This document shows positions 2,978 through 18,342 of a stretch of DNA of 18,433 nucleotides, piece after piece; the first letter of the stretch is position 1, and every line of letters starts with the position of its first letter. The DNA is from a virus. The notes under the pieces were generated by a model. It was not told the origin of the DNA. It ran no database searches and saw nothing but the letters and a program-made list of their open reading frames with translations. The stretch lies in the UHGV virus genome UHGV-0086921; one strand, given 5' to 3'. The position numbers were made by a program, and so were the translations under genes.

Positions 2978-2978
2978 G

Positions 2979-4604
2979 TCACGCTCCGGCCAGTTTGGCC
3001 CAATTATCAAGAGAGGAATCCATCGGCGCGTAGTTAATCATCACGGCGTCAGCGAGGTTCGGCGACTTGGTGCCGTCAGGCTGTTTATCAACAACGATTT
3101 TCCCCACACCGTTAATGGAATAGGTCGGTTGCGACAGCTCGATGATGAGTTTGTCTTTGCTCGCCATGGCGCTGCTGATTGAGATAATTTCGTCCGGGTT
3201 GTAGGCCATTCCCTCAACCACGGCGCGATAGGTGTTCTGGAAAAGCTTGCGTAATTGCCACCAGCTCTGGGCCTTGGCGTTAGCAAAGAAGTCCTTGTTC
3301 AGGCGGGCGGCCTGTCCGTTGTCGCCGCGCACCGCTTCATCGTCCGGATCAAATACCGCGCCGCTACCACGAAACGGTGTGGCGAGTATTGACGGTCGGC
3401 GCGCTGCGTTACGCAGTTCGTTGATGGCGCGCGCATCGCCGCGAACGCCAGCACCCAGGCCGTCCTCGTCGAAGCGAAACTCTTCGAGGTTGTCCTGTTC
3501 GCAAAAGCCGAAGACCTTCTCAACAGACTGGTAAATGTCGCTGCCAACGCCGGACCATTCACGCACGTTCTCCAGAAGGAAGCCGTGACGGGTCGAAAAG
3601 GCGTTTTTGTCCCGGCCTTCGTCGGCGACGTCCATCGCGCCCAGTCGCTTGCCCGTTGGCTGAATACCAAGTTTGATATGCGCGTCGACGGCAGCCTGTA
3701 CCCAATCGGACGGGATCAGGACGCCTTCCGCAGATGCGCTGTAGTTCAGGTCAAGTTCCTGCGCCACCACCACCGGATTGTCGATTTTCTCGCACTCCCT
3801 GCGATACCACTCTTCATCCTTGCGCGGGTCATCTCGCCAGTGGAACGTGAATACTGGTATTTTTCCGCCGTGGCGCTTCTGCGCGAACGGGTTCGCCATG
3901 CCATTAACCGAGCTCAGGTCAATACGGCAACGGGTGGTTTGCGACAGCGCCGCATCAATCAACAGAGGACGCTGGAGGAATGCAGCTTCATCCACCAGGT
4001 AGAGCGTGGTACGGTCACCACGTCCGATATTGTCGCCAGCCTCGCCTTTGATAACCGCGCCAGTATCTGGAAACTCAACGCGCATATAAGGCGCATGCTT
4101 CTTCTCGTCCCACGAGCCACGAAACTCGATGGGCAGTGTTTCCACGAACTTTCGCGCCTTCCAGAACAGCGCCTTCGGGTCACCGGTGCTGTCGACGTAT
4201 TCCTCTTTACGGGAGCCGAAACCGATAACCATTTCTTTGTTGAAGAGGCAGAGCGAACAGGCCAGCCCGATCGCCGTCCAGCTGAGCCCCATTTCGCGGC
4301 TCTTTTCGGTGATGCCGTTCTCCAGTCGTTCGCGCCGCTCCATGATCCAGTGAATCCACTCTTCCTGTTTCGGGAACAGCAGAAAAGGGATGGTGACCGG
4401 CAGGCCATAATCGATGTTACGCGGGTCAGTAGTCATACCCCAGTCGATGATGAACTGTGCCGGGTTGGTGCGGTAAAACTGCTTTAGCGCTGGCAGCATT
4501 TCAGGGTTCTGGCGAATGCGCTGTAAGCGCTCCATCCGCCATTCAAAAACCATCTGGTAATCAGGGTTTCTGAAATCGAATTCAAACGGGAGAGGCATGA
4601 TCAC
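2979..4604 (-). CDS. Terminase large subunit
   Basis: 541 aa ORF between the small terminase and portal genes. It starts with GTG and overlaps the TerS stop by 4 nt (GTGA), indicating translational coupling. Size and position are typical of TerL (ATPase plus nuclease). Confidence 0.8.
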
Positions 4605-5230
4605 CCCATCATCTTGCGGTAAATCTCTGCGGCCTGATCTGCGGTGAGGTTGGTCGTCTCGGTCTTGATCGGGCCGCCATCCGCACCAGTCAGTTCGGTT
4701 TTCTTAGGTGCTTCCCACCCCTGCAACTCAGCCAACTGCTTTATTGCTGCCTTCGGGTCGTGCATCTTCAGTTTGATACCATCTTTCCCTGAGATCAGCT
4801 CTGATACTGCGCTCATCGCGTCAGGGTCCTGAAGGGAAGAATCCTTGAAGCTCCAGACGGCTTGATAGACAGGATTTCCTTCTTCATCCTCCCCCACGAT
4901 GCTGTTACTAAACTCGGCGATATCGGCGATAGAAGCACGGCCCATTTTAGACAAACGCTTAAGAGCTTCATCGCGGGTCATAATGGCCTCGTCGATGATT
5001 TCACCTTGAACAGACTTAATGAACGCCTGAACGTCGCAATTTGTCGCAATTACGTGCGCAGCTTTGCGGAGGTTGTCCCCCTTCGCTTTCCCTCCTGCTT
5101 TGCGGTAAGCCTCGGTCTGATTCTTGCCCTTGATAATGGCTAAGCTGAATCTTTTCTGGAGCGGAGTCAGCACATCGAAAAGGCGCTGCTGTTCCGCCGT
5201 TAGCTTTTTCGATGCCATGATGGTTTCCAT
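4601..5230 (-). CDS. Terminase small subunit
   Basis: 209 aa ORF immediately upstream of and overlapping TerL; N-terminal helix-rich region ([28 protein letters not shown]...) is typical of small terminase DNA-binding domains. The true start may be the second ATG (MASKK...). Confidence 0.65.
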
Positions 5231-5284
5231 AAGTTGTTAACATTATCGAAGCCCCTCATAGAGAAGGGCTCCTGTAATGCCCGG

Positions 5285-6016
5285 TCAGTCCTTAATGAAC
5301 TCTTCCGTGTGAATGCCGATTTCACCAGTAAGCAGCTGAGCACTGGTTGCGTCGATGCTCACTGATGTATGAGGGTTGGCGTTTTCGTTAAGCCATTTGA
5401 TTACCGGATTCACTACGTCTTCGAAGGAGGAGCTGCGAGCCTTATTAACGTCGGAAACGTGGCAGTCACCAAGGCATGGGCCTTTATCGGAAAAACAGTT
5501 AACGCAGGAATGATCGTGGATTTTCTCAGGGACGCTAAAAGTCTCATGAAAACCATGGCCTTCTTGGTACCAGCGCCAACAAGCGCGATATTCATAATCG
5601 ACCGCCTCGTCATGCAACTGCCAAAGCAGATCAGGATTGCTAATGAGCTCATGGCAGATTTTAGGCTGATAGCCTTCCCCAATGGCCTGCTTGATATATT
5701 CAATCATGGCCTCGCGTGAGGGTGGCTTAGTCTGCTCTTCCTGAGTCCCGTCAGTTTCATCATCATATTCAAACACCGGGAAGCAACGCACACTGTCAAC
5801 GAGGTGGTCACGAAAGATACGGGTTTCCAGCGAATCGGGCGCTGTAAACAACTCAATATTTACTCCGGAACCGAGGTTAATTTTCGGTTTATCTTTCGAG
5901 TACCCCTCAAACAACAGGCTTTCGACCAGATTGTGGGCGTTGATAATGCCGGGAAGCTTGCCGGAAGGCTGAGAAAGCTGCAGAAGCTGAACTTTCCAAT
6001 ACTTGATAACTTTCAT
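5285..6016 (-). CDS. Hypothetical Cys/His-rich protein (orphan moron between lysis and packaging modules)
   Basis: 244 aa from the internal ATG (MKVIKYWKVQ...), which has an AAGGA RBS about 8 nt upstream. C-terminal half carries clustered Cys/His (CHELISNPD...HDHSCVNCFSDKGPCLGDCH). I recognise no family. Confidence 0.5.
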   Translation of the reverse strand: MKVIKYWKVQLLQLSQPSGKLPGIINAHNLVESLLFEGYSKDKPKINLGSGVNIELFTAPDSLETRIFRDHLVDSVRCFPVFEYDDETDGTQEEQTKPPSREAMIEYIKQAIGEGYQPKICHELISNPDLLWQLHDEAVDYEYRACWRWYQEGHGFHETFSVPEKIHDHSCVNCFSDKGPCLGDCHVSDVNKARSSSFEDVVNPVIKWLNENANPHTSVSIDATSAQLLTGEIGIHTEEFIKD

Positions 6017-6139
6017 GCTGTTTTCCTTTAGATGTGAGCCTGTCGTACAGGAACGCCGCCCGAGAGAGGTCGCCACCTTTAACGGCGTTCCTCAGGCTCA
6101 CGACTGAAAGACTCTCGATGGTTTGCGTGTACGATACGC

Positions 6140-6170
6140 ATAAAAAAGCCCCGCTATTGCGAGGCTCTTG
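6140..6170 (-). terminator. Putative intrinsic terminator downstream of the lysis cassette
   Basis: On the minus strand, a GCCTCGC...GCGGGGC hairpin followed by TTTTTT, overlapping the end of the Rz1 reading frame. Confidence 0.4.
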
Positions 6171-6417
6171 ATGATTCGATTTTCCTGATTGCTGCCTTAT
6201 CCAGATTGCACTGCCCCAGCGCCGTGTAGAGCTGAGCGTTTAACTCCAGACTTGCCTGCCACGTGAACGGAACCGTCATTCCGGGGATCGGCGTGTCAGC
6301 TGTCAGGTCAGCGCTTATCGGCACCACCGGGGCCGGAACGTAAACTGTTTTGGTATTCCCGCAGGCTGTCAGCAGCGGCAGCAGGAACAAGCTGGTTAGC
6401 ACACGGATCGCCTTCAA
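6154..6417 (-). CDS. Rz1: o-spanin (Rz1-like outer-membrane lipoprotein), overlapped architecture
   Basis: Alternate frame overlapping the 3' part of Rz encodes a lipoprotein signal with lipobox (…[22 protein letters not shown]…) followed by a Pro-rich segment. Start is probably a TTG (giving [19 protein letters not shown]); the first in-frame ATG would put the start at 6477. Confidence 0.55.
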
Positions 6418-6685
6418 GCGCCTGCCTGATGTAGACAATGCGTGTCTCGCCTTTTTTGGCCAGTTCGTTCTTTGCATTCTGGGTAGCCTGTGAGATGTCA
6501 CGGATGAGGTTCATCGTGGTGATCACGTTTCTGGTGATCGCCTCCGATGTGTCTGCCCTGACCGTCGCCTTGTCACGCTGTTCTTTGTAGGCGATGGCGT
6601 TATCACGGTAATGATTAACAGCCCATGACAGGCAGACGATGATGCAGATAACCAGAGCGGAGATAATCGCGGTGACTCTGCTCAT
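6308..6685 (-). CDS. Rz: i-spanin (Rz)
   Basis: N-terminus [31 protein letters not shown] matches lambda Rz as I recall it (transmembrane anchor), then diverges. It overlaps the endolysin stop by 4 nt. Confidence 0.8.
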
Positions 6686-7158
6686 ACCTCAATCTCTCTG
6701 ACCGTTCCGCCAGCTTCTTTGAATTTTGCAATCAGGCTGTCAGCCTTATGCTCGAACTGACCATAACCAGCGCCCGGCAGTGAAGCCCAGATATTGCTGC
6801 AACGGTCGATAGCCTGACGAATATCACCGCGATCAATCATCGGCAAAGCGCCACGTTCCTTAATCTGCTGCAATGCCACAGCGTCCTGGCTTTTCGGAGA
6901 GAAATCTTTCAGGCCAAGTTGCTTACGGTAGGCATCCCACCAACGGGAAAGAAGCTGGTAACGTCCGGCTGCTGTTGATTTGAGTTTTGGGTTTAGCGTG
7001 ACAAGTTTGCGAGGGTGATCTGAGTAATCAGTGAATAGCTCTCCGCCAACAATGACGTCATAACCATGATTTCTGGTTTTCTGTCGTCCGTTATCTGTTC
7101 CCTCTGACCACGCCAGCATATCTAGGAACGCCTTACGTTGATTATTGATTTCCACCAT
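6682..7158 (-). CDS. R: Endolysin R (lytic transglycosylase)
   Basis: 158 aa [51 protein letters not shown]..., essentially the lambda R protein as I recall it. Confidence 0.95.
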
Positions 7159-7465
7159 CTTCTACTCCGGCTTTTTTAGCAGCGAAGCGTTTGATAAGCG
7201 AACCAATCGAGTCAGTACCGATGTAGCCGATGAACACGCTCGTTATATAAGCGAGATTGCTACTTAGTCCGGCGAAGTCGAGAAGGTCACGAATGAACCA
7301 GGCGATAATGGCGCACATCGTTGCGTCGATTACTGTTTTTGTAAACGCACCACCATTATATCTGCCGCGAAGGTACGCCATTGCAAACGCAAGGATTGCC
7401 CCGATGCCTTGTTCCTTTGCCGCGAGAATGGCGGCTAACAGGTCATTTTTTTCTGGCATCTTCAT
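7142..7465 (-). CDS. S: Holin S (class I holin with dual-start motif)
   Basis: 107 aa [39 protein letters not shown]..., near-identical to lambda S105/S107 including the Met-Lys-Met dual start. Confidence 0.95.
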
Positions 7466-8302
7466 GTCTTACCCCCAATAAGGGGACTTGCTCTATTTAA
7501 TTAGGAATAAGGTCGATTACTGATAGAACAAATCCAGGCTACTGTGTTTAGTAATCAGATTTGTTCGTGACCGATATGCACGGGCAAAACGGCAGGATGT
7601 TGTTAGCGCAACCTCTTGCCACCCGCTTTCACGAAGGTCATGTGTAGAAGGCAGAAGCGTAACTATCACTAATGAATTCAGGCCAGACAGTGGCTACGGC
7701 TCAGTTTGGGTTGTGCTGTTGCTGGGCGGCGATGACGCCTGTACGCATTTGGTGATCCGGTTCTGCTTCCGGTATTCGCTTAATTCAGCACAACGGAAAG
7801 AGCATTTATGGCTCGCATCGCGGGAAAAAACCCACGGTAGAGAGTCGAACTCTACAAATACTCTTACCTGCTGTGCGCTCCGTTTCGTGGAGCTAACGGC
7901 AACGACATTACCGGATTATTCGCTGCACCCTTGAGGGATTTACTAAGGCGACATGCCCGTTGTTACCCACGAATGAAAGCTCTATCTTTCGAACAGACTT
8001 TGCGCGCAAGAACGACGATAAATCATAAAGCTCTCATTGGTGGGTGCCCATTATTAATCACAGCGGGCCACTGCGCCGAATTTGTTCACAAGGAATCGGA
8101 AGACCTTGCTGACTTACAGGCTATTACGCCGCCATCAGAACAACATCATCGTTTGCATTTATCTTTGTGGTCAGTTTCTAAAAACCCGCAAAGTCGCCAA
8201 CTCTGACGAAAACTATCGTTGTGCTGCCACAACGATAAGAGCACTCGGTGCATTTAAGCCAAGCCCCATAAGGGAGAATGCTCTTACCTGTTGTGCAAAC
8301 GC

Positions 8303-8331
8303 AAAAAGCCCCGAGCTATTAACTCAGGGCT
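8303..8331 (-). terminator. tR'-like terminator of the short pR' leader transcript
   Basis: Minus-strand hairpin AGCCCTGAG...CTCGGGGCT followed by TTTTT, about 40-60 nt downstream of the pR' start. It is followed by the CACAACAGGTAAGAGCATT motif that follows tR' in lambda. Confidence 0.5.
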
Positions 8332-8366
8332 TTATTTAACGAGTGCATTTATCCATCGTTGAGTCA

Positions 8367-8395
8367 AATTTACCCAACTTTATTCAATAAGTCAA
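8367..8395 (-). promoter_or_regulatory. Late promoter pR' (Q-dependent antitermination site)
   Basis: Minus strand reads TTGACT, 17 bp spacer, TAAATT, just downstream of the Q stop. This matches my memory of lambda pR' (TTGACTTATTGAATAAA.TTGGGTAAATTTGACTCAACGATGG). Confidence 0.6.
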
Positions 8396-8437
8396 TATCA
8401 TGCCGTTAATATGTTGCCATCCGTGGCAATCATGCTG

Positions 8438-9061
8438 CTAACGTGTGACCGCATTCAAAATATTGTCTGCGATTGACTCTTCCTTGTGGCATTGCACCAC
8501 CAGAGCGTCATACAGCGGCTTAACAGTGCGTGACCAGGTGGGTTGGGTAAGGTTTGGGATTAGCATCGTCACAGCGCGATATGCTGCGCTTGCTGGCATC
8601 CTTGAATAGCCGACGCCTTTGCATCTTCCGCACTCTTTCTCGACAACTCTCCCCCACTGCTCTGTTTTGGCTATATCAACCGCACGGCCTGTACCGTGGC
8701 AATCTCTGCATCTTGCGCCCGGCGTCGCGGCACTACGGCAATAATCCGCATAAGCGAATGTTGCGAGCACTTGCAGTACCTTTGCCTTAGTATTTCCTTC
8801 AAGTTTTGCAACGCCACGGTATTTCCCCGATACCTTGTGTGCAAATTGCATCAGATAGTTGATAGCCTTTTGTTTGTCGTTCTGGCTGAGTTCATGCTTA
8901 CCGCAGAATGCAGCCATTCCGAATCCGGCTTGTGATTGCGCCATCCCCATAGCAGCCATCACATCAGTACCGGAAAGAGAGTCAGAAGCCGTAGCCCGTG
9001 GTGAGTCGCTCATCATCGGGCTTTTTGGCGAATGAAATTTAGCTACGCTTTCGAGTCTCAT
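8438..9061 (-). CDS. Q: Late-gene antiterminator Q
   Basis: 207 aa MRLESVAKFHSPKSPMMSDSPRATASDSLSGTDVMAAMGMAQSQAGFGMAAFCGKHELS..., essentially lambda Q as I recall it. Confidence 0.95.
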   Translation of the reverse strand: MRLESVAKFHSPKSPMMSDSPRATASDSLSGTDVMAAMGMAQSQAGFGMAAFCGKHELSQNDKQKAINYLMQFAHKVSGKYRGVAKLEGNTKAKVLQVLATFAYADYCRSAATPGARCRDCHGTGRAVDIAKTEQWGRVVEKECGRCKGVGYSRMPASAAYRAVTMLIPNLTQPTWSRTVKPLYDALVVQCHKEESIADNILNAVTR

Positions 9062-9246
9062 GGCCTTCCCCTTTTGCCCTGTTTGACCATCAGGACGCCG
9101 TTAACTATTACGTGACGCTCGCCTTTGCTGTCTCGGTTGTACTTGAGCACTGTTCCTCTTGCGCAGGAAAGCATCCTTGCCACTTCGGTCTGATTGCCTC
9201 GTGTCTGGATAAGAAGCTCTGGTATCGTTTGAATTGTGGCGTTCAT
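9058..9246 (-). CDS. ninH: NinH-like small DNA-binding protein
   Basis: 62 aa immediately upstream of Q with an ATGA overlap; the motif GNQTEVARMLSCARGTVLKY resembles lambda NinH (GNQTEVARRLKCSRGTVRKY). Confidence 0.7.
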   Translation of the reverse strand: MNATIQTIPELLIQTRGNQTEVARMLSCARGTVLKYNRDSKGERHVIVNGVLMVKQGKRGRP

Positions 9247-9605
9247 GCGTTCTCCAGTTCGGTGATTTTTATTCCAAGCCTTCCACCTGGTACTTTCACA
9301 CCACGAATTACGCGAATGTCATCGAATTGCTCGTCGTCTTCCGCAAATCCGGCGTGGATAAGGGAGTCGAGTAAACCTTTCAGGATGTTGTCGAGGTCGC
9401 GGCGGCGGGAGTCCGGAACGTCTGCGATTACTTTGATGCGGAGTCGTGATTTGGTGAAAATGTCTAACTTAAGTTGGCGGATGATTTGCTGAACGTCTTT
9501 TCGGTATTTCTGGCCTTTATCGCTGATGTAGTATTGGCTTCCCCGTCTTCGCCAGTAGGTATTCACCGACGGCGGGTATGGAAGCACAAACTGATATTCG
9601 TTCAT
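9243..9605 (-). CDS. rusA: Holliday-junction resolvase RusA
   Basis: 120 aa with RusA-family features (VPDSRRRDLDNILKGLLDSL...GF..DD.Q...IRV.RG) similar to the DLP12 RusA; overlaps neighbours by 4 nt. Confidence 0.85.
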   Translation of the reverse strand: MNEYQFVLPYPPSVNTYWRRRGSQYYISDKGQKYRKDVQQIIRQLKLDIFTKSRLRIKVIADVPDSRRRDLDNILKGLLDSLIHAGFAEDDEQFDDIRVIRGVKVPGGRLGIKITELENA

Positions 9606-9892
9606 GACTTAATCTTCCCCTCCTTCAGCAGTATCGCCTGCGTCCTGATCACGCCTTCGAGGTGGTAAAGTCTGGCGTCTTTGTTGTCGAGAATCATTGT
9701 GCGTCGGTCGATTTCATCGTGACACGCGCTACAAGCCCATGCGCCGATCAGGTCGGCAGGCTTCATTCCCGTTCCGCAAATTCCAGCCATCCGGTAATGT
9801 GCCAGAACTGTAGTTTCAGGATTACCATTGCATACGCCGTAAATACGTACCTGGCATTCTCTGCCGCGCGCTTCTTTGCGTAGGTTAGCCAT
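9602..9892 (-). CDS. DUF1364-family protein (YbcO-like, putative Cys-rich nuclease)
   Basis: 96 aa MANLRKEARGRECQVRI.GVCNGNPETTVLAH...CSACHDEIDRR..., closely resembling the YbcO protein of cryptic lambdoid prophages. Confidence 0.7.
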   Translation of the reverse strand: MANLRKEARGRECQVRIYGVCNGNPETTVLAHYRMAGICGTGMKPADLIGAWACSACHDEIDRRTMILDNKDARLYHLEGVIRTQAILLKEGKIKS

Positions 9893-10614
9893 TAAGCAGC
9901 CTCCCCTGTTACTTTCAGCATTCCGTTATCGAGCAGCTTTCTGGTCAGCCACTGTTGACCACGGCCGGTGATTTTTGTGGTGAACGATATCTGTATTCCG
10001 TGATTTGTGTTGACCGCTGTTTCTTTCACTGTGAAATAGCCGCGCTCCATATATTCCTGCATTGGCACATTGCGCCGGGAACCTGAAGCAATAAGGATTT
10101 TGTGATCGCGCATCCACGCAAACAGTTTGTTTGGACCAATTCCAACAACCTTTGCAAAGTTTCCAATCAAAATTCCGCTGGCCTCGCCAACGCGATCGGC
10201 AAACTCAACTTTAGGTGCGGCAATTGCGAGCTGGTTTTCCAGTTGCATTTTCTGCTCAGCAAGATCAGCAGCAAGGCGCAACGCTTCTGGTAGCGTTTTG
10301 GGGATATTAACCGCAGTTTCTTCAAGCTCTCGCCAGCGGTCAACAAGGCGAGCGGTGAACTCTGGCGACAACTGGGCAACAACAACAATACTATCTCGCT
10401 TACCTTGTTCGCCTTCGAAGACGTAATGCTCGTACTGAACATTGAACCCTAAGTTATTGATTCTTTCGGAAACCTCAATTTGAGGAAGCCGGATAACACC
10501 ATTTTTAGCCAGCGTTTCGATGGTACGTTTCACATTGTCATGACGCTTACCCACCAAATAAGCGATTTCAATGCTTGTCATTTTGATGGCATTGCCATTT
10601 ATTAACTCATTCAT
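9892..10614 (-). CDS. Rha-family phage regulatory protein with C-terminal antirepressor (KilAC/ANT-like) domain
   Basis: 240 aa; N-terminal MTSIEIAYLVGKRHDNVKRTIETL (Rha-like) and C-terminal GNFAKVVGIGPNKLFAWMRDHKIL (ANT-like). GAGGAA RBS upstream of the ATG. Confidence 0.7.
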   Translation of the reverse strand: MNELINGNAIKMTSIEIAYLVGKRHDNVKRTIETLAKNGVIRLPQIEVSERINNLGFNVQYEHYVFEGEQGKRDSIVVVAQLSPEFTARLVDRWRELEETAVNIPKTLPEALRLAADLAEQKMQLENQLAIAAPKVEFADRVGEASGILIGNFAKVVGIGPNKLFAWMRDHKILIASGSRRNVPMQEYMERGYFTVKETAVNTNHGIQISFTTKITGRGQQWLTRKLLDNGMLKVTGEAA

Positions 10615-10777
10615 CGTCTTCTTCCTCGTACATTGAGCTATTCGGATCGCTCATCAGTTCTGCGCAGCAATCGGAGCACACGTGAACTTCCAGCACATGC
10701 AGCTTCTGACCGCAGTTAGCGCACGTTAAAGCCCGCTCGACGCTTTCTTGTTCGTAACTTCGATTTGGGTCAATCAC
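10607..10777 (-). CDS. ninF: NinF-like small Cys-rich protein (not in the ORF track; GTG start)
   Basis: Hand translation gives 56 aa: (M)[55 protein letters not shown]. The GTG start overlaps the NinE stop (GTGA). Matches my memory of lambda NinF (orf56). Confidence 0.55.
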
Positions 10778-10956
10778 CTTGTTTTCCTCGCACGTTCTCT
10801 AAGCCACCGGATATCCCACAGGTGAGCCGTGTAGTTGAAGGTTTTTACGTCAGATTCTTTTGGGATTGGCTTGCGTTTATTTCTGGAGCGTTTCGTTGGA
10901 AGGTATTTGCAGTTTTCACAGATGATGTCGGTGATACTTCGTCGCTGTCGTCTCAT
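10774..10956 (-). CDS. ninE: NinE
   Basis: 60 aa from the internal ATG: [60 protein letters not shown], as in lambda NinE. ATGA overlap with the upstream methyltransferase stop. Confidence 0.7.
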
Positions 10957-11483
10957 GCCGCCCTCCTGACGCCCTGCCCGATCGCCATCAATGCCGCTTT
11001 GGATACGGTAGTAAACATCCGTCGAGGACTGATGAACGGTCGCCAAATCAGCAGCATGGAGCCTTTGCTGTTTCCCTTCTTCTCCAGCCCTGTCGATGGT
11101 TCGATAAAATTAATCCGTCCATCAGTGATAATGCGAACTTCGTCGACACTCTCCAGAGCCTTGCTGAACCATCCGACAGACATATCCTCTGGCACAAGCA
11201 TCACTACCGTCTGTCGCTGTTGTATGCACTGCTCAGCTGCTTTTTCCACCCACGGCCTGATATTGCTGTACGGTGGGTTATTCCAGATTGCACCGTGACT
11301 TACCCACTCAGAATTGAGCGCGTCGTCGGCCTCAGTTAGCCAGTGAGCGCACAGAGCATTTTTGTCGCTCGCTGCCGAATCCAGCCAGAATCCAAACTCA
11401 ATATCCAGTGCATCAAAAAGCCAGAGCGGCGTTTGCCAGCAGTCTCTAACTTCTTTTGGTGTTTCTGATTTATGCTTAATCAT
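10953..11483 (-). CDS. Phage DNA N6-adenine methyltransferase (Dam-type orphan MTase)
   Basis: 176 aa with the NPPY catalytic motif ([11 protein letters not shown]) and the N-terminal [12 protein letters not shown] pattern typical of the phage Dam family. Confidence 0.8.
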
Positions 11484-12007
11484 TCACCCCTCGCATATTG
11501 TCCGTGATATTTGTTGATAGCCTCACTGGCAACCAAACCAGCAAGCTCAAGATCTTCATAGAACCCAAAATGCAACCGGCCAAAATCTGTGCGCACTTGA
11601 ACGGCCCATTTATTTTTTTGCTTGTTCCATAAAACATTTTTTATTCCAGAACGGCTATTGCACTTAGTTTTCTGATTTCGGCTGTTTGCTATCCGGCTTG
11701 CCTCCCTAAGATTTTTTGGGGAATTGTCCAGCCTGTTTCCGTTAATATGGTCAATATTTTTCAATGGCATTCTTTTGTTGTGCAGCGCAAAAACAACTAC
11801 GTGAACAAACATCTGAATGCCTGCAAAACACACCTGTCTATACCCAGATCCATTTATCGATGTTTTAATTTCATCTCCGGCCCGGTGGCTGTGGTTGGGG
11901 TGTTTTAGCGAGTCCTTTTTGTATCTGACTGTATCTCCGTCTAAATACAGATAATCCTCAATAAGCCGATACCTATCTGACGCTGGCGTATTTGATTTGA
12001 TAGTCAT
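11480..12007 (-). CDS. HNH endonuclease with AP2-like DNA-binding domain (homing-endonuclease type)
   Basis: 176 aa from the internal ATG (MTIKSNTPASDRYRL...); HNH motif IDHINGNRLDNSPKNLREASRIANSRN followed by an AP2-like segment (NKWAVQVRTDFGRLHFGFYEDLELAGLVASEAINKYHG). ATGA overlap with the ninB stop. Confidence 0.75.
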   Translation of the reverse strand: MTIKSNTPASDRYRLIEDYLYLDGDTVRYKKDSLKHPNHSHRAGDEIKTSINGSGYRQVCFAGIQMFVHVVVFALHNKRMPLKNIDHINGNRLDNSPKNLREASRIANSRNQKTKCNSRSGIKNVLWNKQKNKWAVQVRTDFGRLHFGFYEDLELAGLVASEAINKYHGQYARGE

Positions 12008-12444
12008 GCAGCCCGATCTCCCCATCGCGCTTTCCATTCGAGAGCCAGTCGCGCTTCGTCTGACCACTTAACGCCACGCTCTGTACCGAATGCCTGTATA
12101 AGCTCTAATAGCTCCGCAAATTCGCTTACACGCATCCTGCTGGTTGACTGGCCTATTACCACAAAGCCATTCCCGGCAAGGTTAGGAACAACATCCTGCT
12201 GCTTTAATGCTGCGGTAAACACACACTTCCAGCTTTCTGCATCCAGCCAGCGCCCATGCCATTCAACCTGACGAGAGACGTCACCAAGGCAAGCCCAAAG
12301 CTTTCGATTCTGGTCTAAGCTGCGGTTGCGTTCCTGAATGGTTACTACGATTGGTTTGGTTGGGTCTGGAAGAATTTGCTGTACCGCGTGAATAGCGTTT
12401 TGCTGATGTGCTGGAGATCGAATTTCAAAGGTTAGTTTTTTCAT
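12004..12444 (-). CDS. ninB: NinB (Orf recombination mediator)
   Basis: 146 aa from MKKLTFEIRSPAHQQNAIHAVQQILPDPTKPIVVTIQERNRSLDQNRKLWACLGDVSRQVEWHGRWLDAESWK..., essentially lambda NinB as I recall it. Confidence 0.9.
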   Translation of the reverse strand: MKKLTFEIRSPAHQQNAIHAVQQILPDPTKPIVVTIQERNRSLDQNRKLWACLGDVSRQVEWHGRWLDAESWKCVFTAALKQQDVVPNLAGNGFVVIGQSTSRMRVSEFAELLELIQAFGTERGVKWSDEARLALEWKARWGDRAA

Positions 12445-12481
12445 GACTTCCCTCTCCCCCAAATAAAAAGGCCTGCGATTA

Positions 12482-12511
12482 CCAGCAGGCCTGTTATTAG
12501 CTCAGTGATGT
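12482..12511 (-). terminator. tR2-like intrinsic terminator between the replication and nin modules
   Basis: Minus strand: 7-8 bp perfect stem (GGCCTGC / GCAGGCC) with an 8 nt loop, followed directly by TTTTTATTTGG. Same position as tR2 in lambda. Confidence 0.6.
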
Positions 12512-12520
12512 AGATGGTCA

Positions 12521-13957
12521 TCAGAATCCCCCTTTCTTCTTGGACTGCGGTTCCTTGCGTTCACGGCGGCGAATTTCAGCAGACTGTTGGTCTGTGTCAT
12601 AAATAGCGCCATTTGCCTGAATGCAATACACCGTACCGGTATTGCCATGACGATTGAGACGAAGGATTAGTTCGGTTTCACCAGGTGGAACACTGTCATC
12701 AAAAGCGCCTTCACGATGGATCCCAACCCAATAATCGCAATCCTGTTCAATCTGCCCTGTATCTCGTGAGTCACTTGGTAATGGGCGTTTATTGGTTCGG
12801 CTTTCCAGTGCGCGGTTAAGCTGCGTCAGAAGCACAACAACGCAATCAAGCTCTTTGGCAAGGTTCTTCAGTCCTTTGGTGATCATGCCGTAAGCAAGGT
12901 CGTTGCGATCGGCCTTCTCAGCGGTCATTAGTGTCAGGTAATCGACCAGAATCATGCCAACACATCCTTTTTCTCGCTTGATTCGACGGCTTTCGCTGAC
13001 GATTTGAGCCAGAGATAATCCCGGCGTGTCGTCGATGTAAAGCATGTCGATTTCACTCAAGCGATTAGCTGTTTCGATCGCCCTGTTGAAGGCACCATCG
13101 TAATCACCCTGATAGCCGTCATCAGCGTCATTTGTCGCCGGAAGGTAAAAAATATTCGGGTTAACACCAGACTTCTGCCCTACCAGTTTTTCCAGTATCT
13201 GATCACCTGGCATTTCAAGGCTGAACATCAAAGCGGGCTTTTTCTCATGCACTGCGCAATTGATTGCCATCTGGCTGTATAGCGTCGTTTTCCCCATCTT
13301 AGGGCGAGCGCCAATGACAAACAGAGAGCCTTTCACCAGACCTTTCGGTGACAGCATCCTGTCCAGCGATGGGATCCCTGTGCTCATTCCCCGTTGTTCG
13401 CCTGATGGGTCAAATCGCTTCTCAAGGTCGCTAACCCAGTCTTCCATGACCTCACCAAATGAACGAAGGCCGCGACGCGATCCGGTTTTTGCATGGTCTG
13501 TCAGTTGCGTGAAAATCGCCTGAATAGCTTCGTACTTCTGCGTTGCAGTCATTCCGTTGCGGGAATAGAGCAATTCCGTCGCTTCAGTCATGCGGTTGAT
13601 GGCGTAGCGTTCCATTGCGGTTTCACGAACCTGCATTGCATAGGCAACGATGTTTGCTGCGCTTGGCGTGTTCTTTGCGATCTCAGCGATATAAGCAAAA
13701 CCGCCAACAGACGCCGTTAACGATTTACGCTCCAGTTCATCGAAAAGCGTCAGGCCATCTACTGGCTTTTGCTCCCGGTGCATTCTGGTTATTTCTTCGA
13801 AAAGGATTTTGTGTGGTCGGCCGTAAAATGAATCAGGCTTCAGCATCGCCAGAACTTTCCGGACGCGCTCACTGCTGTCATCATCCAGAAGCAATCCACC
13901 AATCACCGCCTGCTCTGCCTCGATGCTATGGGGCGGCGCATAAAAATTATCGGTCAT
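12521..13957 (-). CDS. Replicative DNA helicase, DnaB family (P22 gp12-type)
   Basis: About 478 aa with Walker A GARPKMGKT, Walker B MILVDYL, and the DnaB-like N-terminal domain (IEAEQAVIGGLLLD). Preferred start MTDNFYAPP; overlaps the upstream gene stop. Confidence 0.9.
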   Translation of the reverse strand: MTDNFYAPPHSIEAEQAVIGGLLLDDDSSERVRKVLAMLKPDSFYGRPHKILFEEITRMHREQKPVDGLTLFDELERKSLTASVGGFAYIAEIAKNTPSAANIVAYAMQVRETAMERYAINRMTEATELLYSRNGMTATQKYEAIQAIFTQLTDHAKTGSRRGLRSFGEVMEDWVSDLEKRFDPSGEQRGMSTGIPSLDRMLSPKGLVKGSLFVIGARPKMGKTTLYSQMAINCAVHEKKPALMFSLEMPGDQILEKLVGQKSGVNPNIFYLPATNDADDGYQGDYDGAFNRAIETANRLSEIDMLYIDDTPGLSLAQIVSESRRIKREKGCVGMILVDYLTLMTAEKADRNDLAYGMITKGLKNLAKELDCVVVLLTQLNRALESRTNKRPLPSDSRDTGQIEQDCDYWVGIHREGAFDDSVPPGETELILRLNRHGNTGTVYCIQANGAIYDTDQQSAEIRRRERKEPQSKKKGGF

Positions 13958-14846
13958 CGTGTTCACCCTCACGAACTTTCAGGTAGGTATTATCGTTAAG
14001 CAGGAAATCAAATCCCTTTTTGTGCCAGACGGTTCCGCGCTGATGGTTTGGGCGCTCTTCGAACATCCATCGGCAATTTTCGCCTACGTAGCTCAAATAA
14101 TTTCTCCAGTCCTGCATCGTGAAACCATGCCCGTCAAGCTGTCGGGTTATCACTCCGGCTTTGCGCCAGAACGTTCGGATCTGGTTTTTACGCTTGTCAT
14201 TCAGTGCGCGGATTCTTGGCGCTTCAGGAAGGATTTCGTGGTAAGCATCGACAACATCCTGACAGCTGACGGAAGGTTTTTTCTTGTCAGACTTTTTGTC
14301 TGCTGTGGCACTCTCTAATACGTCAGTATTAGAGATAATATTATTATATTCTTTATCTGTGGTAATTTGCTGGTAATCTGCTGGTACAGTATTGCTTGCA
14401 GGCATTGGTATTGCTGGCTTTGAGGTGGTAATTTGCTGGTAATCTGCTGGTACAAAATTTGACTGATAATCGTCATATTTCTCTACCGAGAAAACTGAGA
14501 ATTTACCGTGTGAAACCCAGTCAATCATGCCGAGTTTTTTGAACTTTCTAAGCAGGTACTGAACGCGATCTGGTTTGAGTCCTGTTTCAAACGCCAGAGT
14601 ATTTCTACCGCCAAGTAGCTTCCCTCTGCCTACCAGAATTTCTCCTGCGTCAGTCATTACATACTCAGGCGTATGCTTTGCTTTGAGGATTAAGTGAACC
14701 CACAGATGCGCAGTTTCTGCGTCCTTGTAAAACGGCACATCCATAATTTTACGGTGCAGCAAGGCATACCCCTTACCGCTGCTTTGATGCGGTTGTTGTA
14801 GCCTTCTGGCCTCTCTGGCTTCGGCTAGATTAGATATGTTACTCAT
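13947..14846 (-). CDS. Replication initiation protein (O-like / P22 gp18-like), with origin iterons inside the gene
   Basis: 299 aa ORF directly upstream of the helicase gene. It contains tandem peptide repeats ([10 protein letters not shown] x2) encoded by DNA direct repeats, the hallmark of lambdoid initiators whose ori lies within the gene. Confidence 0.75.
14355..14455. repeat. Origin-of-replication iteron array inside the initiator gene
   Basis: Two roughly 30 bp direct repeats GTGGTAATTTGCTGGTAATCTGCTGGTACA (about 14358-14389 and 14423-14454) built from CTGGTAAT-type sub-repeats, flanked by an AT-rich stretch around 14320-14360. Confidence 0.55.
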
Positions 14847-14985
14847 GACCTTTCTCCTTCTGCATCAGCTTCACTTTTTCCAACTCAGCCCGGAATCGAC
14901 CAGGCTGCTTGAAGCTGGACAGGAAGCGATCACGTAGTATGTGTTTGTGAATTTTGTCCTGGTAAGGACTGAGTTGTTTTGTCAT
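14839..14985 (-). CDS. Small hypothetical protein (48 aa) between cII and the initiator gene
   Basis: Hand translation: [48 protein letters not shown], with an AGGAG RBS 5 nt upstream. Its stop overlaps the initiator start. No recognised family. Confidence 0.35.
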
Positions 14986-14989
14986 AATG

Positions 14990-15062
14990 ACTCCTGTTGA
15001 TAGATCCAGTCTTTCTACATCAGGCCTCGAAGAATTCGCCGTTCTTCGGGGCTTTTTCTTTT
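14990..15062 (+). ncRNA. oop-like antisense RNA (terminator well supported; promoter tentative)
   Basis: Plus-strand intrinsic terminator at about 15024-15062: 11 bp stem GCCTCGAAGAA / TTCTTCGGGGC followed by TTTTTCTTTT, antisense to and overlapping the cII 3' end, exactly as lambda oop does. Candidate -10 CATAAT at about 14983-14988. Confidence 0.45.
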
Positions 15063-15298
15063 GTCAGCATTCTGGCTACTTTCTTAGCCAGTTCCGCCAA
15101 CTCCTCGTCTTCAACACCCCATTCAAGAACAGCCAGAAGCATTCCCATTTTTGGGATGAAGCTGTCTTTCCATCGCGAAATTTGCGATTCATTAATCCCT
15201 AACGCGTCGGCAACCTTTCGCTGACCACGTACAGCAATTCGATTCAGGATGTTGCTTGTAATTGCATTCGCTTTCTTGCGAGTACTTGTAAGTTGCAT
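15020..15298 (-). CDS. cII: Transcriptional activator CII
   Basis: 92 aa from [62 protein letters not shown]..., with the lambda CII signature ([25 protein letters not shown]). The translation-initiation region AAGGAAATACTTACAT-ATG is lambda-like. Confidence 0.85.
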
Positions 15299-15356
15299 AT
15301 GTAAGTATTTCCTTAACAAATAAGAAGTTATGCGCATCAAATTATGCGCGTTGTAT

Positions 15357-15400
15357 TCCCGCATTTCGGCGGGAATGAGGACCATGACTGTTAAAGAGCG
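15357..15400 (-). promoter_or_regulatory. nutR (boxA + boxB) N-utilisation site
   Basis: On the minus transcript, boxA CGCTCTTTAACAG is followed by the boxB hairpin UCCCGC-CGAAAU-GCGGGA, immediately downstream of cro. An identical boxB is present in nutL. Confidence 0.6.
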
Positions 15401-15408
15401 GGTACTGC

Positions 15409-15627
15409 TTAGGCGGCTTTGTTACTGGATGGAGGGAAAACATCATCCAAAGAACATTGGCACCCTAACTTCCTGAGGCCTTCTACGATCATTCGGCAAT
15501 CGTTAAGGCCAGGAGTACGGATATTCAGCTCATAGTTGGCGATGCGGGATTGCCCCCAACCAATTGCTGAAGCTAGTACAGCTTGCGAAACTCCGATTTT
15601 TTTTCGCTGCTGGGCAATTTTGTTCAT
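15409..15627 (-). CDS. cro: Cro-like HTH repressor (434/P22-type Cro)
   Basis: 72 aa from MNKIAQQRKKIGVSQAVLASAIGWGQSRIANYELN... (HTH_XRE-like), with a GGGAGA RBS. It is the first gene transcribed from the pR-like promoter, divergent from cI. Confidence 0.8.
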   Translation of the reverse strand: MNKIAQQRKKIGVSQAVLASAIGWGQSRIANYELNIRTPGLNDCRMIVEGLRKLGCQCSLDDVFPPSSNKAA

Positions 15628-15639
15628 TGCGGTCTCCCT

Positions 15640-15735
15640 AGCATTAATCACACACCCATTACACACAATTTGTGATTAACAGTCAACCTCAATTCGTGTA
15701 CAGAGTTCAATCACGTTGCGTGTTACATTTAAGGG
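15640..15735. promoter_or_regulatory. Right operator/promoter region (OR with pR and pRM)
   Basis: Divergent cI/cro intergenic region. Minus-strand pR reads TTGACT (about 15681-15686), 17 bp spacer, TGTAAT (about 15658-15663). Repeated AATCACA/TGTGATT operator half-sites (TTAATCACA at about 15644; TGTGATTAA at about 15671; AATCACG at about 15709). Possible pRM -10 TACATT ending at the cI ATG, implying a leaderless cI mRNA. Confidence 0.6.
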
Positions 15736-16383
15736 ATGAAAACGATGCATGAAATTATCGGGGAAAGGATCAAGTCCCTTAGAGAAGCTAAAGGACTTAG
15801 CCAGGCTCAATTGGCCAAGCTTTGCGGCTGGGCTGCGCCTTCACGCCTGGGGAACTACGAGTTAGGAACAAGAAAGGTTAGCGCGGATGACGCGCTGGTT
15901 CTTGGGGCGGCACTCGGCGTATCTCCGGCAAAAATAATGTTTGGCGAGGATTCAGACGCCGTATTTCGCCAATATGAATACCCGTTATTTTCTTCAGTGC
16001 AGGCCGGGCCATTTTCGGAGGTGGGAAGCTACACAGCCAGCGATGCAAAGGCATGGGTCCCAACGACCACAAAAGCCAGCGAAAAAGCTTTCTGGCTTGA
16101 GGTGAAGGGGCATTCAATGACGGCGCCTCAGGGGGTTCGTCCAAGTTTTCCGGAAGGCATGCTGATACTCGTTGATCCGGCTGAGCCGGTAGAGTCTGGG
16201 GATTTCTGCGTGGCTTCTGCAAATGGTGATTCAGAGGCAACGTTCAAGAAGTATGAGAAGGATGCAGGGGTTAGTTACCTGGTACCTTTAAACCCGGCAT
16301 ATAGAACACTGGATTGCGACCATAGCTGCCGCATCATAGGCAAGGTAGTTAAGGCGCAGTGGCCTGAAGAGACGTTTGGCTGA
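15736..16383 (+). CDS. cI: CI prophage repressor (LexA-like S24 autopeptidase family)
   Basis: 215 aa with an N-terminal HTH ([12 protein letters not shown]...) and C-terminal S24 features (VKGHSMTAP... Ser nucleophile, and a later Lys in IGKVVK). An in-frame alternative start at 15745 has an AAGGG RBS. Confidence 0.9.
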
Positions 16384-16533
16384 TCGGCAAGGTGTTCTGG
16401 TCGGCGCATAGCTGGTGAAAAAATTATTTAATGCGGTGTATTGGCTGATTGTAACCCCATGTAACATCTTGCCGTCACCATTTCGGTGGTTAGATTTTTA
16501 ATAAAAAAAAACAAATGTATAGCAAGGTTTTTT

Positions 16534-17013
16534 ATGGATAAAATTAATTACCCACCCCTGTTTGAGCCAGGGTTCCATGACATGGATGAAGCTGGATTAA
16601 AATCGTATTGTGTCGATTGCTTTCCTTCATCATCCAGGCGAGGCATGCTATACTGTAATTTTATACAGCTACTCGAATCTATTCGAGAATTATCTGCTCA
16701 ATATGGCTGTTTTACAGAAATATGGGTTGATGGTTCATACACCACGTCTAAACCAGAGCCTGATGATATTGATATTTTGTTGGTATGTGACTATAGCAAT
16801 ATAAACTCAATACCTGTCATGCTTCGGGGCCGCGTCGATAATTTGCTTGACCGAAACTACATCAAACAAAACTACAAAATTGATGTCCTACTACTCATGA
16901 AGAATTTAGATGACCCTAACTATGATTATGAGTACTGGCGTAGCTACTGGCGCGGTTGGTTTGGTTTTGATCGCAGTGAAAACCCGAAAGGGTTAGTGAG
17001 GATTTTTTTATGA
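16534..17013 (+). CDS. Predicted minimal nucleotidyltransferase-fold protein (Pol-beta superfamily-like), cargo gene A
   Basis: 159 aa from MDKINYPPLF... (the track ORF starts at an upstream GTG in an A/T run, less likely). Motif EIWVDGSYTTSKPEPDDIDILLV fits the NTase GS-x(9-13)-DxD signature. AAGG RBS; AT-rich codon usage unlike the surrounding phage genes. Confidence 0.55.
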   Translation: MDKINYPPLFEPGFHDMDEAGLKSYCVDCFPSSSRRGMLYCNFIQLLESIRELSAQYGCFTEIWVDGSYTTSKPEPDDIDILLVCDYSNINSIPVMLRGRVDNLLDRNYIKQNYKIDVLLLMKNLDDPNYDYEYWRSYWRGWFGFDRSENPKGLVRIFL

Positions 17014-17942
17014 ATGATAAATCAATGTTTAAAAATTGCGATAAACGCATTGATTTCATTCAAAAAGAAGTCGATGCAATGAAGCAAAACAAAACCAGGT
17101 CCTTTGCTGACATGCTTCTTTATCGCTCCATGGATTCTCATCTGAGCGATTTGAAGGCCGAAAAATTAAAGCAAGATAGTCGGCACCCACTTATCGATTT
17201 TTTTGAGCTGCGGCTGAAAGGCTCTGAGGTTGACTTTGGCTCTATTCCTTTAGAGCTGCTTGGGGCTATTTCAACAAATCTTGCAGCGCTAATACAAAGA
17301 GCAACACACAAAATTGCCTCAGGCAAGGACTCAAAAAAAGTTCCCTACGACGTGAAAAGCTCCTTAAACCTCAGGCTGGCTGATTTATCCCCTGGGTCTA
17401 CAAAATTGGGCGTCACCTTCTCTACAGGAATAGCAGAATTAGTAGAAACAGTACCCAGCAAGGCTGTAAAAGGCATATTCGATTTGTTGTTAAGCGATGA
17501 CGACAACAACTTCATGAATCACGTCGCTGAAATTGGATACAATTCCACTGTAAGCCTTAAGAGAATCGTAGAGGAATGCGATAAACACAACTTAACATTT
17601 GATGCAAGTTGGACCGGTCCATTTAGTAATGGCACCAAGGTGGCAACTATTGACTCCAATAAAATTAAGTACTTGGTGAGTAGACTTACATCAACCATTT
17701 CATCCCCTCCCATTACTGAAACGGTTACAGGCGAACTGGTCGTTCTATCCAAATATGGGAAGCTGGAGCTTGATGTTGGTGGTGAACATTTAAAGGCTTC
17801 CTATCCGATTGAAATGCTAGATTTAATACAAAAAAAACACAAGGTCGGACAGATTGTTTCTCTTTTAGTGGAGACTACTGAGATTCACAATGATCGCATA
17901 GGTCTGTACCGTAAAAACCATCTTGTTAAATCGGTTCTTTAA
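17010..17942 (+). CDS. Hypothetical protein (310 aa), cargo gene B, translationally coupled to gene A
   Basis: Its start overlaps the gene A stop (ATGA at 17010-17013). No transmembrane segments are apparent and I recognise no family. AT-rich. Followed by a strong terminator. Confidence 0.6.
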   Translation: MNDKSMFKNCDKRIDFIQKEVDAMKQNKTRSFADMLLYRSMDSHLSDLKAEKLKQDSRHPLIDFFELRLKGSEVDFGSIPLELLGAISTNLAALIQRATHKIASGKDSKKVPYDVKSSLNLRLADLSPGSTKLGVTFSTGIAELVETVPSKAVKGIFDLLLSDDDNNFMNHVAEIGYNSTVSLKRIVEECDKHNLTFDASWTGPFSNGTKVATIDSNKIKYLVSRLTSTISSPPITETVTGELVVLSKYGKLELDVGGEHLKASYPIEMLDLIQKKHKVGQIVSLLVETTEIHNDRIGLYRKNHLVKSVL

Positions 17943-17949
17943 TATCTCA

Positions 17950-17976
17950 CCCGGCCACCGCGCCGGGTTTTTTATT
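17950..17976 (+). terminator. Intrinsic terminator ending the cI-cargo transcript (tIMM-like)
   Basis: CCCGGC-CACCGC-GCCGGG hairpin followed by TTTTTTATT, 8 nt after the gene B stop. Confidence 0.7.
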
Positions 17977-18189
17977 GTCCGCCGATCACTATCAGGACAG
18001 CACCTGCCAGCCGGTCCAAACAATTGATTAAATTACTATAATTCTTAATACAACTCCCATATCCCGCCATCTCGCCACCACCACCTTCGCTCGTTTTTCG
18101 AACTTTTCAGCACCCATCCTGCTGTTGCCACCGACTTAAGTAAGCAAAACCATCGCGGGTAAAACTATTTACACAAAAAAATCATACAC

Positions 18190-18255
18190 ATAACGTGTCA
18201 CACCTTTATTTTACACATTTTGTGATTGACCATTAAATCACAATATGTGACTATC
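18190..18255 (+). promoter_or_regulatory. Left operator/promoter region (OL/pL)
   Basis: Inverted repeat TTGTGATT-N8-AATCACAA (about 18220-18243) shares half-sites with the OR region. Candidate pL is TTGACC (about 18226) with a weak -10 about 17 bp downstream. nutL lies about 50 nt downstream. Confidence 0.5.
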
Positions 18256-18300
18256 ATTTCCATCAGCAGGACGCTGGTAGCCAAACGGAACATATTGGCA

Positions 18301-18342
18301 GGCTCTTTAACATTGATGGGATTGTCCCGCCGAAATGCGGGA
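18301..18342 (+). promoter_or_regulatory. nutL (boxA + boxB)
   Basis: boxA GGCTCTTTAACA and boxB TCCCGCCGAAATGCGGGA on the plus strand; the boxB is the exact reverse complement of the plus-strand sequence at nutR, so both transcripts carry the same hairpin. Confidence 0.6.

Follow-up and report, generated by a model that had tools for sequence, protein, structure and literature searches.

What role does a pair of overlapping genes play when it sits directly behind the repressor gene of a lambdoid prophage and its first member carries the signature of a nucleotidyltransferase (NTase)? The pair lies in UHGV virus genome UHGV-0086921; the window, meaning the whole stretch of 18,433 nucleotides (nt) analyzed here, is part of a lambdoid prophage. 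Gene A occupies 16534..17013 on the plus strand, from its ATG at 16534 to a TGA ending at 17013, and encodes 159 amino acids (aa); gene B, on the same strand at 17010..17942, encodes 310 aa. Sequence and structural models together indicate that A is very probably a divergent minimal NTase of the DNA polymerase beta (Pol-beta) type with an intact active site, and the A-B pair is low in GC, was acquired horizontally, and occupies the rexAB slot of the prophage as cargo. The balance of evidence tips slightly toward a lysogen-expressed conflict or defense module of the abortive-infection type; to the explanation developed below as a whole, including the parts that we assign to the two proteins, we give a probability of roughly 0.4.

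A preliminary description of this DNA had drawn attention to a GS...DxD signature in a small protein, and both the open reading frame (ORF) and the motif are located as it said. The segment EIWVDGSYTTSKPEPDDIDILLV corresponds to residues 62-84 of A, and the motif itself (G67-S68, nine residues, then D78-I-D80; 16732..16773, plus strand) runs from the end of beta-1 to the start of beta-2. The preference for an ATG with a ribosome-binding site also proved right: AAGG is found at 16524-16527, 6 nt 5' of the ATG, the N-termini of 40 homologues line up with the Met encoded there, and both GenBank records of Escherichia phage mEpX1 carry an identical 480-nt coding sequence for A. The in-frame extension to an upstream GTG (16486), which had been judged probably noncoding, is an A/T tract that is not common to the homologues. 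The motif by itself is not significant, since the bare pattern G[GS]-x9-13-D-x-D turned up in 4.3% of shuffles that preserve the composition of A, although the window, with 98 open frames of at least 60 aa, has it only once. What takes it beyond chance is its conservation, the position of its elements on the expected strands, and the retrieval of nucleotidyltransferases by the searches described below.

A matched the Pfam family DUF6932 (PF22014) with a score of 87.3 bits (cut-off 27) and an E value of 1.7e-24, over profile positions 7-141 of 142; all 41 relatives in our first alignment (A1; identity down to 33%) likewise match this family. The protein also matched the PADLOC model PDC-M63A (PDLC04744, E 1.8e-41), corresponds to PHROG 9194, an entry without known function, and carries the RefSeq name "DUF6932 family protein"; no NCBIfam model matched A or B. 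The family is large, with 3722 clusters at 50% identity for E values up to 1e-3 and 1420 for E values up to 1e-10, and its members are almost all stand-alone proteins of 145-170 aa. The isoelectric point (pI) of A is 4.7, and the family median is 5.1. In the 41-relative alignment no sequence departs from G67, S68, D78, or D80, at least 90% have D117, and the block R136-F145 is invariant or nearly so. A wider set comprised 90 nonredundant relatives, with identities as low as about 30%, drawn from Proteobacteria, Bacteroidota, Bacillota (Clostridia), Acidobacteriota, Nitrospirota, Verrucomicrobiota, Parcubacteria, and phages. Here the same four residues, together with W64, P76, F30, and R36, are found in 90/90, and position 117 is Asp in 77/90. 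The residues on which the preliminary description had relied are therefore conserved among the homologues in both sets, and invariant GS and DxD at about 30% identity, with a conserved third Asp, form the pattern that selection on catalysis predicts. A further, DUF6932-specific motif, R136-S-Y-W-R-G-W-F-G-F145 (16939..16968, plus strand), is located at a C-terminal helix (residues 132-143) and is retained at Y138 in 80, W139 in 85, and F143 in 76 of the 90 relatives; substrate binding and partner binding are candidates for its role.

An AlphaFold2 model of A, built with the 41-relative alignment, reached a predicted local distance difference test (pLDDT) value of 96.4 and shows a Pol-beta NTase topology. 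The elements follow one another as helix 34-57, strand 60-66, GS, strand 79-86 (DxD), helices, strand 116-123 (D117), helix 132-143, and strand 153-158. G67-S68 comes directly after strand 60-66, and D78-I-D80-I stands at the start of strand 79-86. A third acidic residue, which had still to be found, is predicted to be D117 (codon 16882..16884, plus strand), in an h[DE]h motif (I-D117-V) at the start of strand 116-123. Structure comparison recovered the minimal alpha-beta-alpha-beta-alpha-beta NTase fold, to which A adds an N-terminal strand and helix relative to MntA. Two fold searches with A both placed NTases on top, and the closest solved structures were minimal NTases, mainly MntA antitoxins; the scores were modest (template modeling [TM] score of about 0.3 to MntA), and weak matches to the core included CdnB, CdnC, and CdnD. 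At the sequence level, 26 of the 41 relatives gave independent sub-threshold matches to NTP_transf_2 (best 8.8e-6), DNA_pol_B_palm (9.1e-5), and Polbeta (5.3e-4); the window A itself reached 0.044 at best against the Pol-beta palm and had no match to NTP_transf_2 at E values up to 1. The A family profile matched DNA polymerase beta chains with an E value of about 0.13, aligning GSF...D.D with GSFRRGAESSGDMDVLL of Pol beta and the D117 column with the Asp of FITDTLS; the aligned Asp residues of Pol beta are its three catalytic carboxylates. A search of the A sequence against PDB chains gave nothing meaningful (flavodoxin, at E 0.46). The DUF6932 profile, the NTase family matches of the relatives, the fold, and the motif conservation thus agree with the Pol-beta-like NTase proposed in the preliminary description, and we hold with good confidence that A is an active enzyme.

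The product of gene B matched the PADLOC model PDC-M63B (PDLC04749, E 7.5e-45) and PHROG 6603, and is otherwise an orphan protein, with no Pfam, NCBIfam, or PDB sequence relative; a B profile likewise retrieved no PDB chain. A PDB sequence hit of B, to an LPXTG repeat protein at E 0.0026, covered only 37 residues and is not meaningful. The model of B consists of an N-terminal helical hairpin (residues 10-56, 17037..17177, plus strand; helices 10-25 and 32-56), a central domain, and a C-terminal OB fold (approximately residues 232-310, 17703..17939, plus strand), the last being a confident structural match. Neither a membrane-spanning segment in the model nor a catalytic-looking motif was seen. 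The invariant or nearly invariant residues include one His (H277), and R68 and R122 lie far from it, so that B has no conserved Rx4-6H motif. In the hairpin, L48 is the sole invariant residue in alignment A3, and there is no conserved Ser, Thr, or Tyr acceptor. The median pI is 5.6 for the B family and 5.5 for its OB domain; nucleic acid binding by this domain was accordingly downgraded as a candidate function, since OB domains throughout the family lack a basic character.

The two genes are joined by an ATGA sequence, in which the start of B at 17010 overlaps the stop codon of A (17011-17013) by 4 nt in all; with a GAGGA (16998-17002) in the 3' end of A, 7 nt 5' of the B start, this forms a translational coupling site (16998..17013, plus strand). 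Enterobacterial relatives show an identical 4-nt overlap, e.g., our loci L014, L015, and L018-L022. Linkage was examined in 80 genome loci, one per species, and in 80 viral (IMG/VR) loci. A full-length member of the B family was present directly 3' of A, on the same strand, in 54/80 genome loci and 77/80 viral loci. The other genome loci held a distant partner of 310-345 aa (10 loci, at least two of them, L033 and L087, with TPR proteins), a short partner of 133-271 aa (4 loci), a B split into two ORFs (4 loci), a B cut by the contig end (4 loci), a contig without room for a partner (3 loci), or an HsdR-like helicase overlapping the A stop (1 locus, L096). On the viral side, B was cut by the contig end in one locus and truncated or weak in two, split forms not being separated from truncated ones in this set. 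The partners of distant A relatives are of the B type, merely 20-27% identical to the B of the window. Many loci also have a 180-210-aa ORF after B; these ORFs are unrelated by all-against-all BLAST, and a conserved third gene was rejected. We conclude that A and B are, on this evidence of gene linkage, very likely an obligate functional pair.

Not all of B takes part equally in this linkage. Short partners of 55-135 aa keep only the N-terminal hairpin of B, with a recurring motif, PxNFxxxLTLxSxxxHxxEL; they occur in L009, L060, L070, L076, L099, L181, and possibly L016 (Streptococcus phage MissE1). Since these partners retain the hairpin alone, we infer that the hairpin is the element that couples to A and that the rest of B is exchangeable.

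Several individual loci illustrate the range of partners. In L009 (1838-3134; ENA ERZ27319035 k141_653814), as also in L010, the DUF6932 homologue is followed by a 114-aa hairpin-only protein and then by a 177-aa SecB-like (PF02556) gene; a SocA_Panacea gene lies about 1.2 kb downstream in L009. The gene order in L009 resembles that of toxin-antitoxin-chaperone operons, in which the chaperone serves the antitoxin. A phmmer search with the SecB-like ORF of L009 against all ORFs of the collected loci returned only itself. The TPR-repeat partners (L033:6445-7455 and L087:6462-7499) have 336-345 aa and lie directly 3' of the DUF6932 genes, and the helicase that overlaps the A stop codon in L096 (6456-9026) is an 856-aa protein with ResIII and EcoEI_R_C domains. 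Where B is in two ORFs (L031, L040, L062, and L091; B region about 6400-7400), A is intact; the split could represent a frameshift, a pseudogene, or a sequencing error, and, if real, would suggest that A is tolerated without full-length B. Two proteins, P0349 (L098:681-1850) and P0364 (L099:4899/5001-6068; GCA_038040175.1), are fusions of an N-terminal ImmA/IrrE-type M78 metallopeptidase with a C-terminal DUF6932 domain, in which GS, DxD, and the third D are intact; in L099 the fusion is followed by an overlapping 61-76-aa coiled-coil ORF that resembles the hairpin of B. These fusions link the family to XRE/ImmA-type switch modules.

The setting of the pair in the prophage suggests when it would be expressed. 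Directly 5' of A lies a cI-type repressor gene (15736..16383, plus strand) whose product combines a helix-turn-helix with an S24 peptidase (Pfam Peptidase_S24, 3.1e-26; HTH_3, 2.8e-10), and whose mEpX1 counterpart is annotated cI. The spacer between cI and A is 150 nt long (16384..16533, plus strand) and contains a weak terminator-like hairpin, an A/T tract, and the Shine-Dalgarno sequence AAGG of A. A consensus scan found no sigma-70-like site between cI and A, which suggests that cI, A, and B are co-transcribed in the lysogen, with cI as the first gene. The hairpin (16471-16490, plus strand; 6 pairs, 3 of them G-C) is followed by a T-rich stretch and the A/T tract (TAGATTTTTAATAAAAAAAAA), and could be either an attenuator of read-through from PRM into A-B or a chance match. 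Seven nt past the B stop begins a strong intrinsic terminator (17949..17978, plus strand), a 7-bp stem with 6 G-C pairs and then TTTTTATTGT, which ends the A-B unit ahead of the OL/PL-nutL region. That region (18170-18320, plus strand) contains inverted-repeat, operator-like sequences (…TTTTACACATTTTGTGATTGACCATTAAATCACAATATGTGAC…) and, at about 18302-18319, a boxA-like GCTCTTTAA that the mEpX1 annotation gives as nutL boxA; N is placed beyond the window end. The cI gene has a G+C fraction of about 0.55, A-B one of 0.38-0.42. The block from 15700 to about 18319 (cI, A, B, and nutL boxA) is 99.4% identical to mEpX1, in which the counterparts of A and B are labelled "hypothetical" and situated between cI and N, which in lambda is the rexAB slot.

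The order cI-A-B recurs in mEpX1, PhiR30_1, and Erwinia phage vB_EhrS_59, each with a different repressor. Among 60 distinct upstream neighbors in viral contigs (IMG/VR), 34 contained HTH_3 and 30 contained Peptidase_S24; they are on the same strand, 57-270 nt 5' of A, and mutually divergent, and at least 30 distinct S24-type repressor contexts hold the pair. Versions of A with 24-32% identity also occur in the lysogeny modules of Streptococcus phage MissE1 (L016:2429-3069) and the satellite Javan304 (L017:2438-3806), beside helix-turn-helix regulators, an ImmA/IrrE peptidase, and an integrase. The A-like gene of MissE1 stands between the regulators and the peptidase and is followed by a 55-aa ORF; in Javan304 a 294-aa ORF without detectable similarity to B follows. 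In 5426 complete E. coli genomes the window allele was found 18 times and the PhiR30_1-type allele 98 times, together about 2%, all of them chromosomal. Some bacterial loci adjoin type I or type ISP restriction-modification genes, PLD or Nmad3 genes, or integrases. The matches around the 80 bacterial loci (PD-T7-4, HEC-01, a type I restriction endonuclease, PDC-S02, two HEPN, resolvases, a terminase, a CI repressor) are scattered among many housekeeping genes, and we make no claim of defense-island enrichment.

What, then, might the pair do? A translationally coupled two-gene unit, its low GC, its spread across phyla, its inferred expression from the repressor operon, and its listing in PADLOC argue for a conflict module. 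In the explanation that we favor, A would be a minimal Pol-beta-fold NTase in an obligate pair with the coupled B; the two would be transcribed with cI in the lysogen, with termination right after B, and would constitute a toxin-antitoxin-like, abortive-infection, or superinfection-exclusion module (PDC-M63AB). A would be the constant enzymatic effector and would nucleotidylylate some target in the host or the phage. B would keep it inactive through the hairpin and, with its central and OB domains, would sense infection and then set A free. Complex formation, the defense role, the polarity, and the target are all what we infer from the patterns described above.

The division of labor in this scheme, with A as effector and B as neutralizer and sensor, is tentative, and several observations point to it. 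Across lineages it is the partner that changes (OB, TPR, or hairpin only), whereas A and its catalytic residues stay the same, and hairpin-only partners of 55-135 aa seem too small for effector activity. A SecB-like chaperone gene follows the short partner in L009, as it does for antitoxins; the shared hairpin offers no conserved acceptor residue; and B lacks a catalytic-looking motif and any Pfam or PDB sequence relative. The working analogy is with AbiEii/MenT (DUF1814) and AbiEi/MenA, where an NTase is the enzymatic half of an abortive-infection or toxin-antitoxin gene pair. These toxins are roughly twice as large as A, and their antitoxin gene comes first; A, unlike them, is acidic rather than basic. 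Membership in AbiE/MenAT was rejected, there being no PADLOC AbiE and no Pfam DUF1814 match, and the upstream gene being cI, not AbiEi. Extended to the whole family, the same idea would make DUF6932 proteins minimal NTase toxins, neutralized by the partner hairpin, with swappable sensor domains (OB, TPR, or chaperone-dependent short forms) that detect infection; this wider version is just as tentative.

A number of points weigh against the explanation. Deletion of PDC-M63AB in E. coli NILS69 left susceptibility to 10 virulent phages unchanged (10.1101/2024.12.20.629700); the result is weak as evidence, since the panel was small and had no temperate phages, and it is the sole published test that we found. 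PADLOC systems with PDC names are unpublished candidates (PMC11811056). The solved structures nearest to A belong to MntA antitoxins, proteins with a regulatory and not an effector role, and A, B, and the OB domain are on the whole acidic, unlike classical tRNA- or DNA-directed toxins and single-stranded-DNA binders. The SecB argument comes from one lineage only, and co-transcription with cI from the consensus scan only. Finally, the immediate neighbors of the bacterial loci are mostly unrelated or housekeeping genes, those of mobile elements or defense being a minority.

The main rival is MntA-like control, as in the type VII minimal nucleotidyltransferase (MNT)-HEPN systems, in which A would nucleotidylylate (AMPylate) B and so keep B, the effector, inactive; loss of A activity or synthesis in infection would free B, which would then block replication or translation through its OB domain. 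The resemblance to MntA-HepT is considerable: a minimal Pol-beta-fold NTase with GS...DxD, MntA antitoxins as the closest solved structures, and a two-gene operon in which the NTase gene comes first and the partner gene overlaps it. Hailong HalB and Clover CloB, recent precedents for inhibitory NTases, act constitutively to hold a toxic partner in check (PMC13434031). B, however, is not a HEPN protein: it has no HEPN or other Pfam match and no Rx4-6H motif, and has an OB fold instead. A differs from MntA in its extra N-terminal strand and helix and its RSYWRGWFGF helix, with the TM score only at about 0.3. Membership in MNT-HEPN was rejected on account of the non-HEPN partner and the absence of an NTP_transf_2 match for the window A. 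Nor do the partners fit the roles that this polarity would give them, since the hairpin is the only part common to all lineages and has the invariant L48 alone with no Ser, Thr, or Tyr to modify, the hairpin-only partners are unlikely effectors, and the SecB-associated short partner looks like an antitoxin. We regard MntA-like control as unlikely.

A lower probability still attaches to a role outside defense, with A-B as an accessory of the lysogeny switch or a prophage fitness factor that, for example, senses nucleotides or stress and modulates repressor stability or induction. The tight placement of the pair behind many different cI/S24 repressors would suit such a role, as would the position of the A-like gene in MissE1 between regulators and ImmA/IrrE peptidase, the two independent M78-DUF6932 fusions, and the negative outcome in NILS69. 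On the other hand, most bacterial loci have no adjacent repressor (among 142 immediate neighbors, HTH_3 in 5 and Phage_CI_repr in 2), and some adjoin restriction-modification or other defense genes. The slot behind a prophage repressor is, moreover, a well-known site of exclusion genes such as rexAB, and pairs of XRE and M78 proteins also control defense operons, e.g., CapH/CapP of CBASS. The likeness to lambda rexA-rexB is one of position and of presumed expression: two genes directly 3' of cI, on the same strand, with a terminator before PL and N, in lysogens. RexB is a membrane protein, whereas the model of B shows no membrane-spanning segment, and membership in RexAB was rejected, as neither sequence nor domain similarity was detected, with no Rex match in PADLOC or Pfam and genomic position alone shared.

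Slightly less probable again is a nucleotide signal or oligonucleotide guard of the CBASS or Hailong kind, in which A would make a small nucleotide or a template-independent oligonucleotide, B would bind it, perhaps via the OB fold, and a change in ligand level on infection would switch B. The Pol-beta/CD-NTase-type core, with CdnB, CdnC, and CdnD among the fold matches, the OB fold of B, and a constant NTase with a variable partner, which resembles cyclase-effector logic, are in keeping with this; the nearly invariant Y138 (80/90) might, more speculatively, prime synthesis as in HalB. CBASS, HalB, and CloB share with A a Pol-beta-type NTase core used in antiphage systems. A is, however, half the size of a CD-NTase (about 300 aa) and B is neither a Cap effector nor a channel nor a deoxynucleoside triphosphatase. 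No HalB or CloB structure was among the matches in the fold searches with A, and no relationship to Hailong or Clover was detected. CBASS membership was rejected because A, at 159 aa, is single-lobed and no CBASS model was among the PADLOC matches for A or B; the remark in the preliminary description that A is too small for a CBASS cyclase is borne out by the missing C-terminal lobe. That A is a noncatalytic scaffold bearing a chance or relic motif is very improbable: the frequency of the bare motif in shuffles (4.3%), the modest fold-search scores, and the 0.044 of the window A against the Pol-beta palm would allow it, but GS and DxD in 90/90 relatives at about 30% identity, a conserved third Asp, and the position of every motif element on the correct secondary-structure element speak against it.

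The rest of the window holds genes of the same prophage. On the minus strand are those for head morphogenesis, portal, TerL, TerS, endolysin, Q antiterminator, Ant/KilAC anti-repressor, a DnaB-like helicase, and an O-like initiator, after which come cII-like and cro-like genes, assigned from position and the mEpX1 annotation. The ORF at 5285-6076 (minus strand; 263 aa), flanked by the small terminase gene and the lysis region, matched only PHROGs of "unknown function" (phrog_16206) and may be another cargo gene. The prophage is a mosaic: the 99.4% match to mEpX1 is limited to the cI-A-B-nutL block and does not include 1-15700, and in any one complete E. coli genome at most 59% of the window is covered at a single place, the best being strain PC6 at 96.9% identity. 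An 83-nt tRNA-Ala(cgc) reported by ARAGORN within the cI coding sequence (15934-16016, plus strand) is probably a false positive and was discounted, as Rfam reports no tRNA there; the Rfam scan of the window found no RNA family.

As a gene pair, A-B is not new to the catalogs. It is the family and pair entered as Pfam DUF6932, PADLOC PDC-M63AB, and PHROGs 9194 and 6603, from which it shows no difference in sequence; adjacent PDC-M63A and PDC-M63B matches with a 4-nt overlap place it in PDC-M63. None of these entries assigns a function: one is a DUF, one an unpublished candidate, and the PHROGs are marked "unknown function." Our literature search found no paper that mentions DUF6932 and no description of a DUF6932/PDC-M63 function, and the accessible parts of the mEpX1 papers contain nothing on A or B; in the literature on minimal nucleotidyltransferase antiphage systems and on DefensePredictor we found no named system that matches the pair. 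What the present analysis adds, and what we found in neither the readable catalog entries nor the literature searched, is the assignment of A as an NTase, the OB fold in B, the existence of hairpin-only partners, and the position behind cI. In the way it would work, the pair most resembles toxin-antitoxin or abortive-infection systems of two genes that include an NTase, from which it differs by a new architecture of the partner and by its characteristic place after prophage repressors.

To our knowledge the mechanism of rexAB itself is still incompletely understood, and here its slot is occupied by an unrelated, uncharacterized pair of enzyme and partner. Because the pair is present in mEpX1, a cultivable phage of E. 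coli K-12, it is open to standard lysogen genetics. If such work gave no phenotype, it would be a useful caution on candidate lists. If A is the regulator, control of the MntA type would reach an effector that has an OB fold and is not HEPN; if A proves to be the effector, the pair would represent a new class of minimal-NTase toxin and a new neutralize-and-sense architecture, and the roles known from MNT systems, where the minimal NTase acts as antitoxin, would be reversed. With either polarity, a domain of unknown function and an unverified PADLOC candidate would become a defined system. Should the explanation that we favor hold, A-B would be a widespread functional analogue of rexAB, carried in the repressor operons of dozens of lambdoid immunity types.

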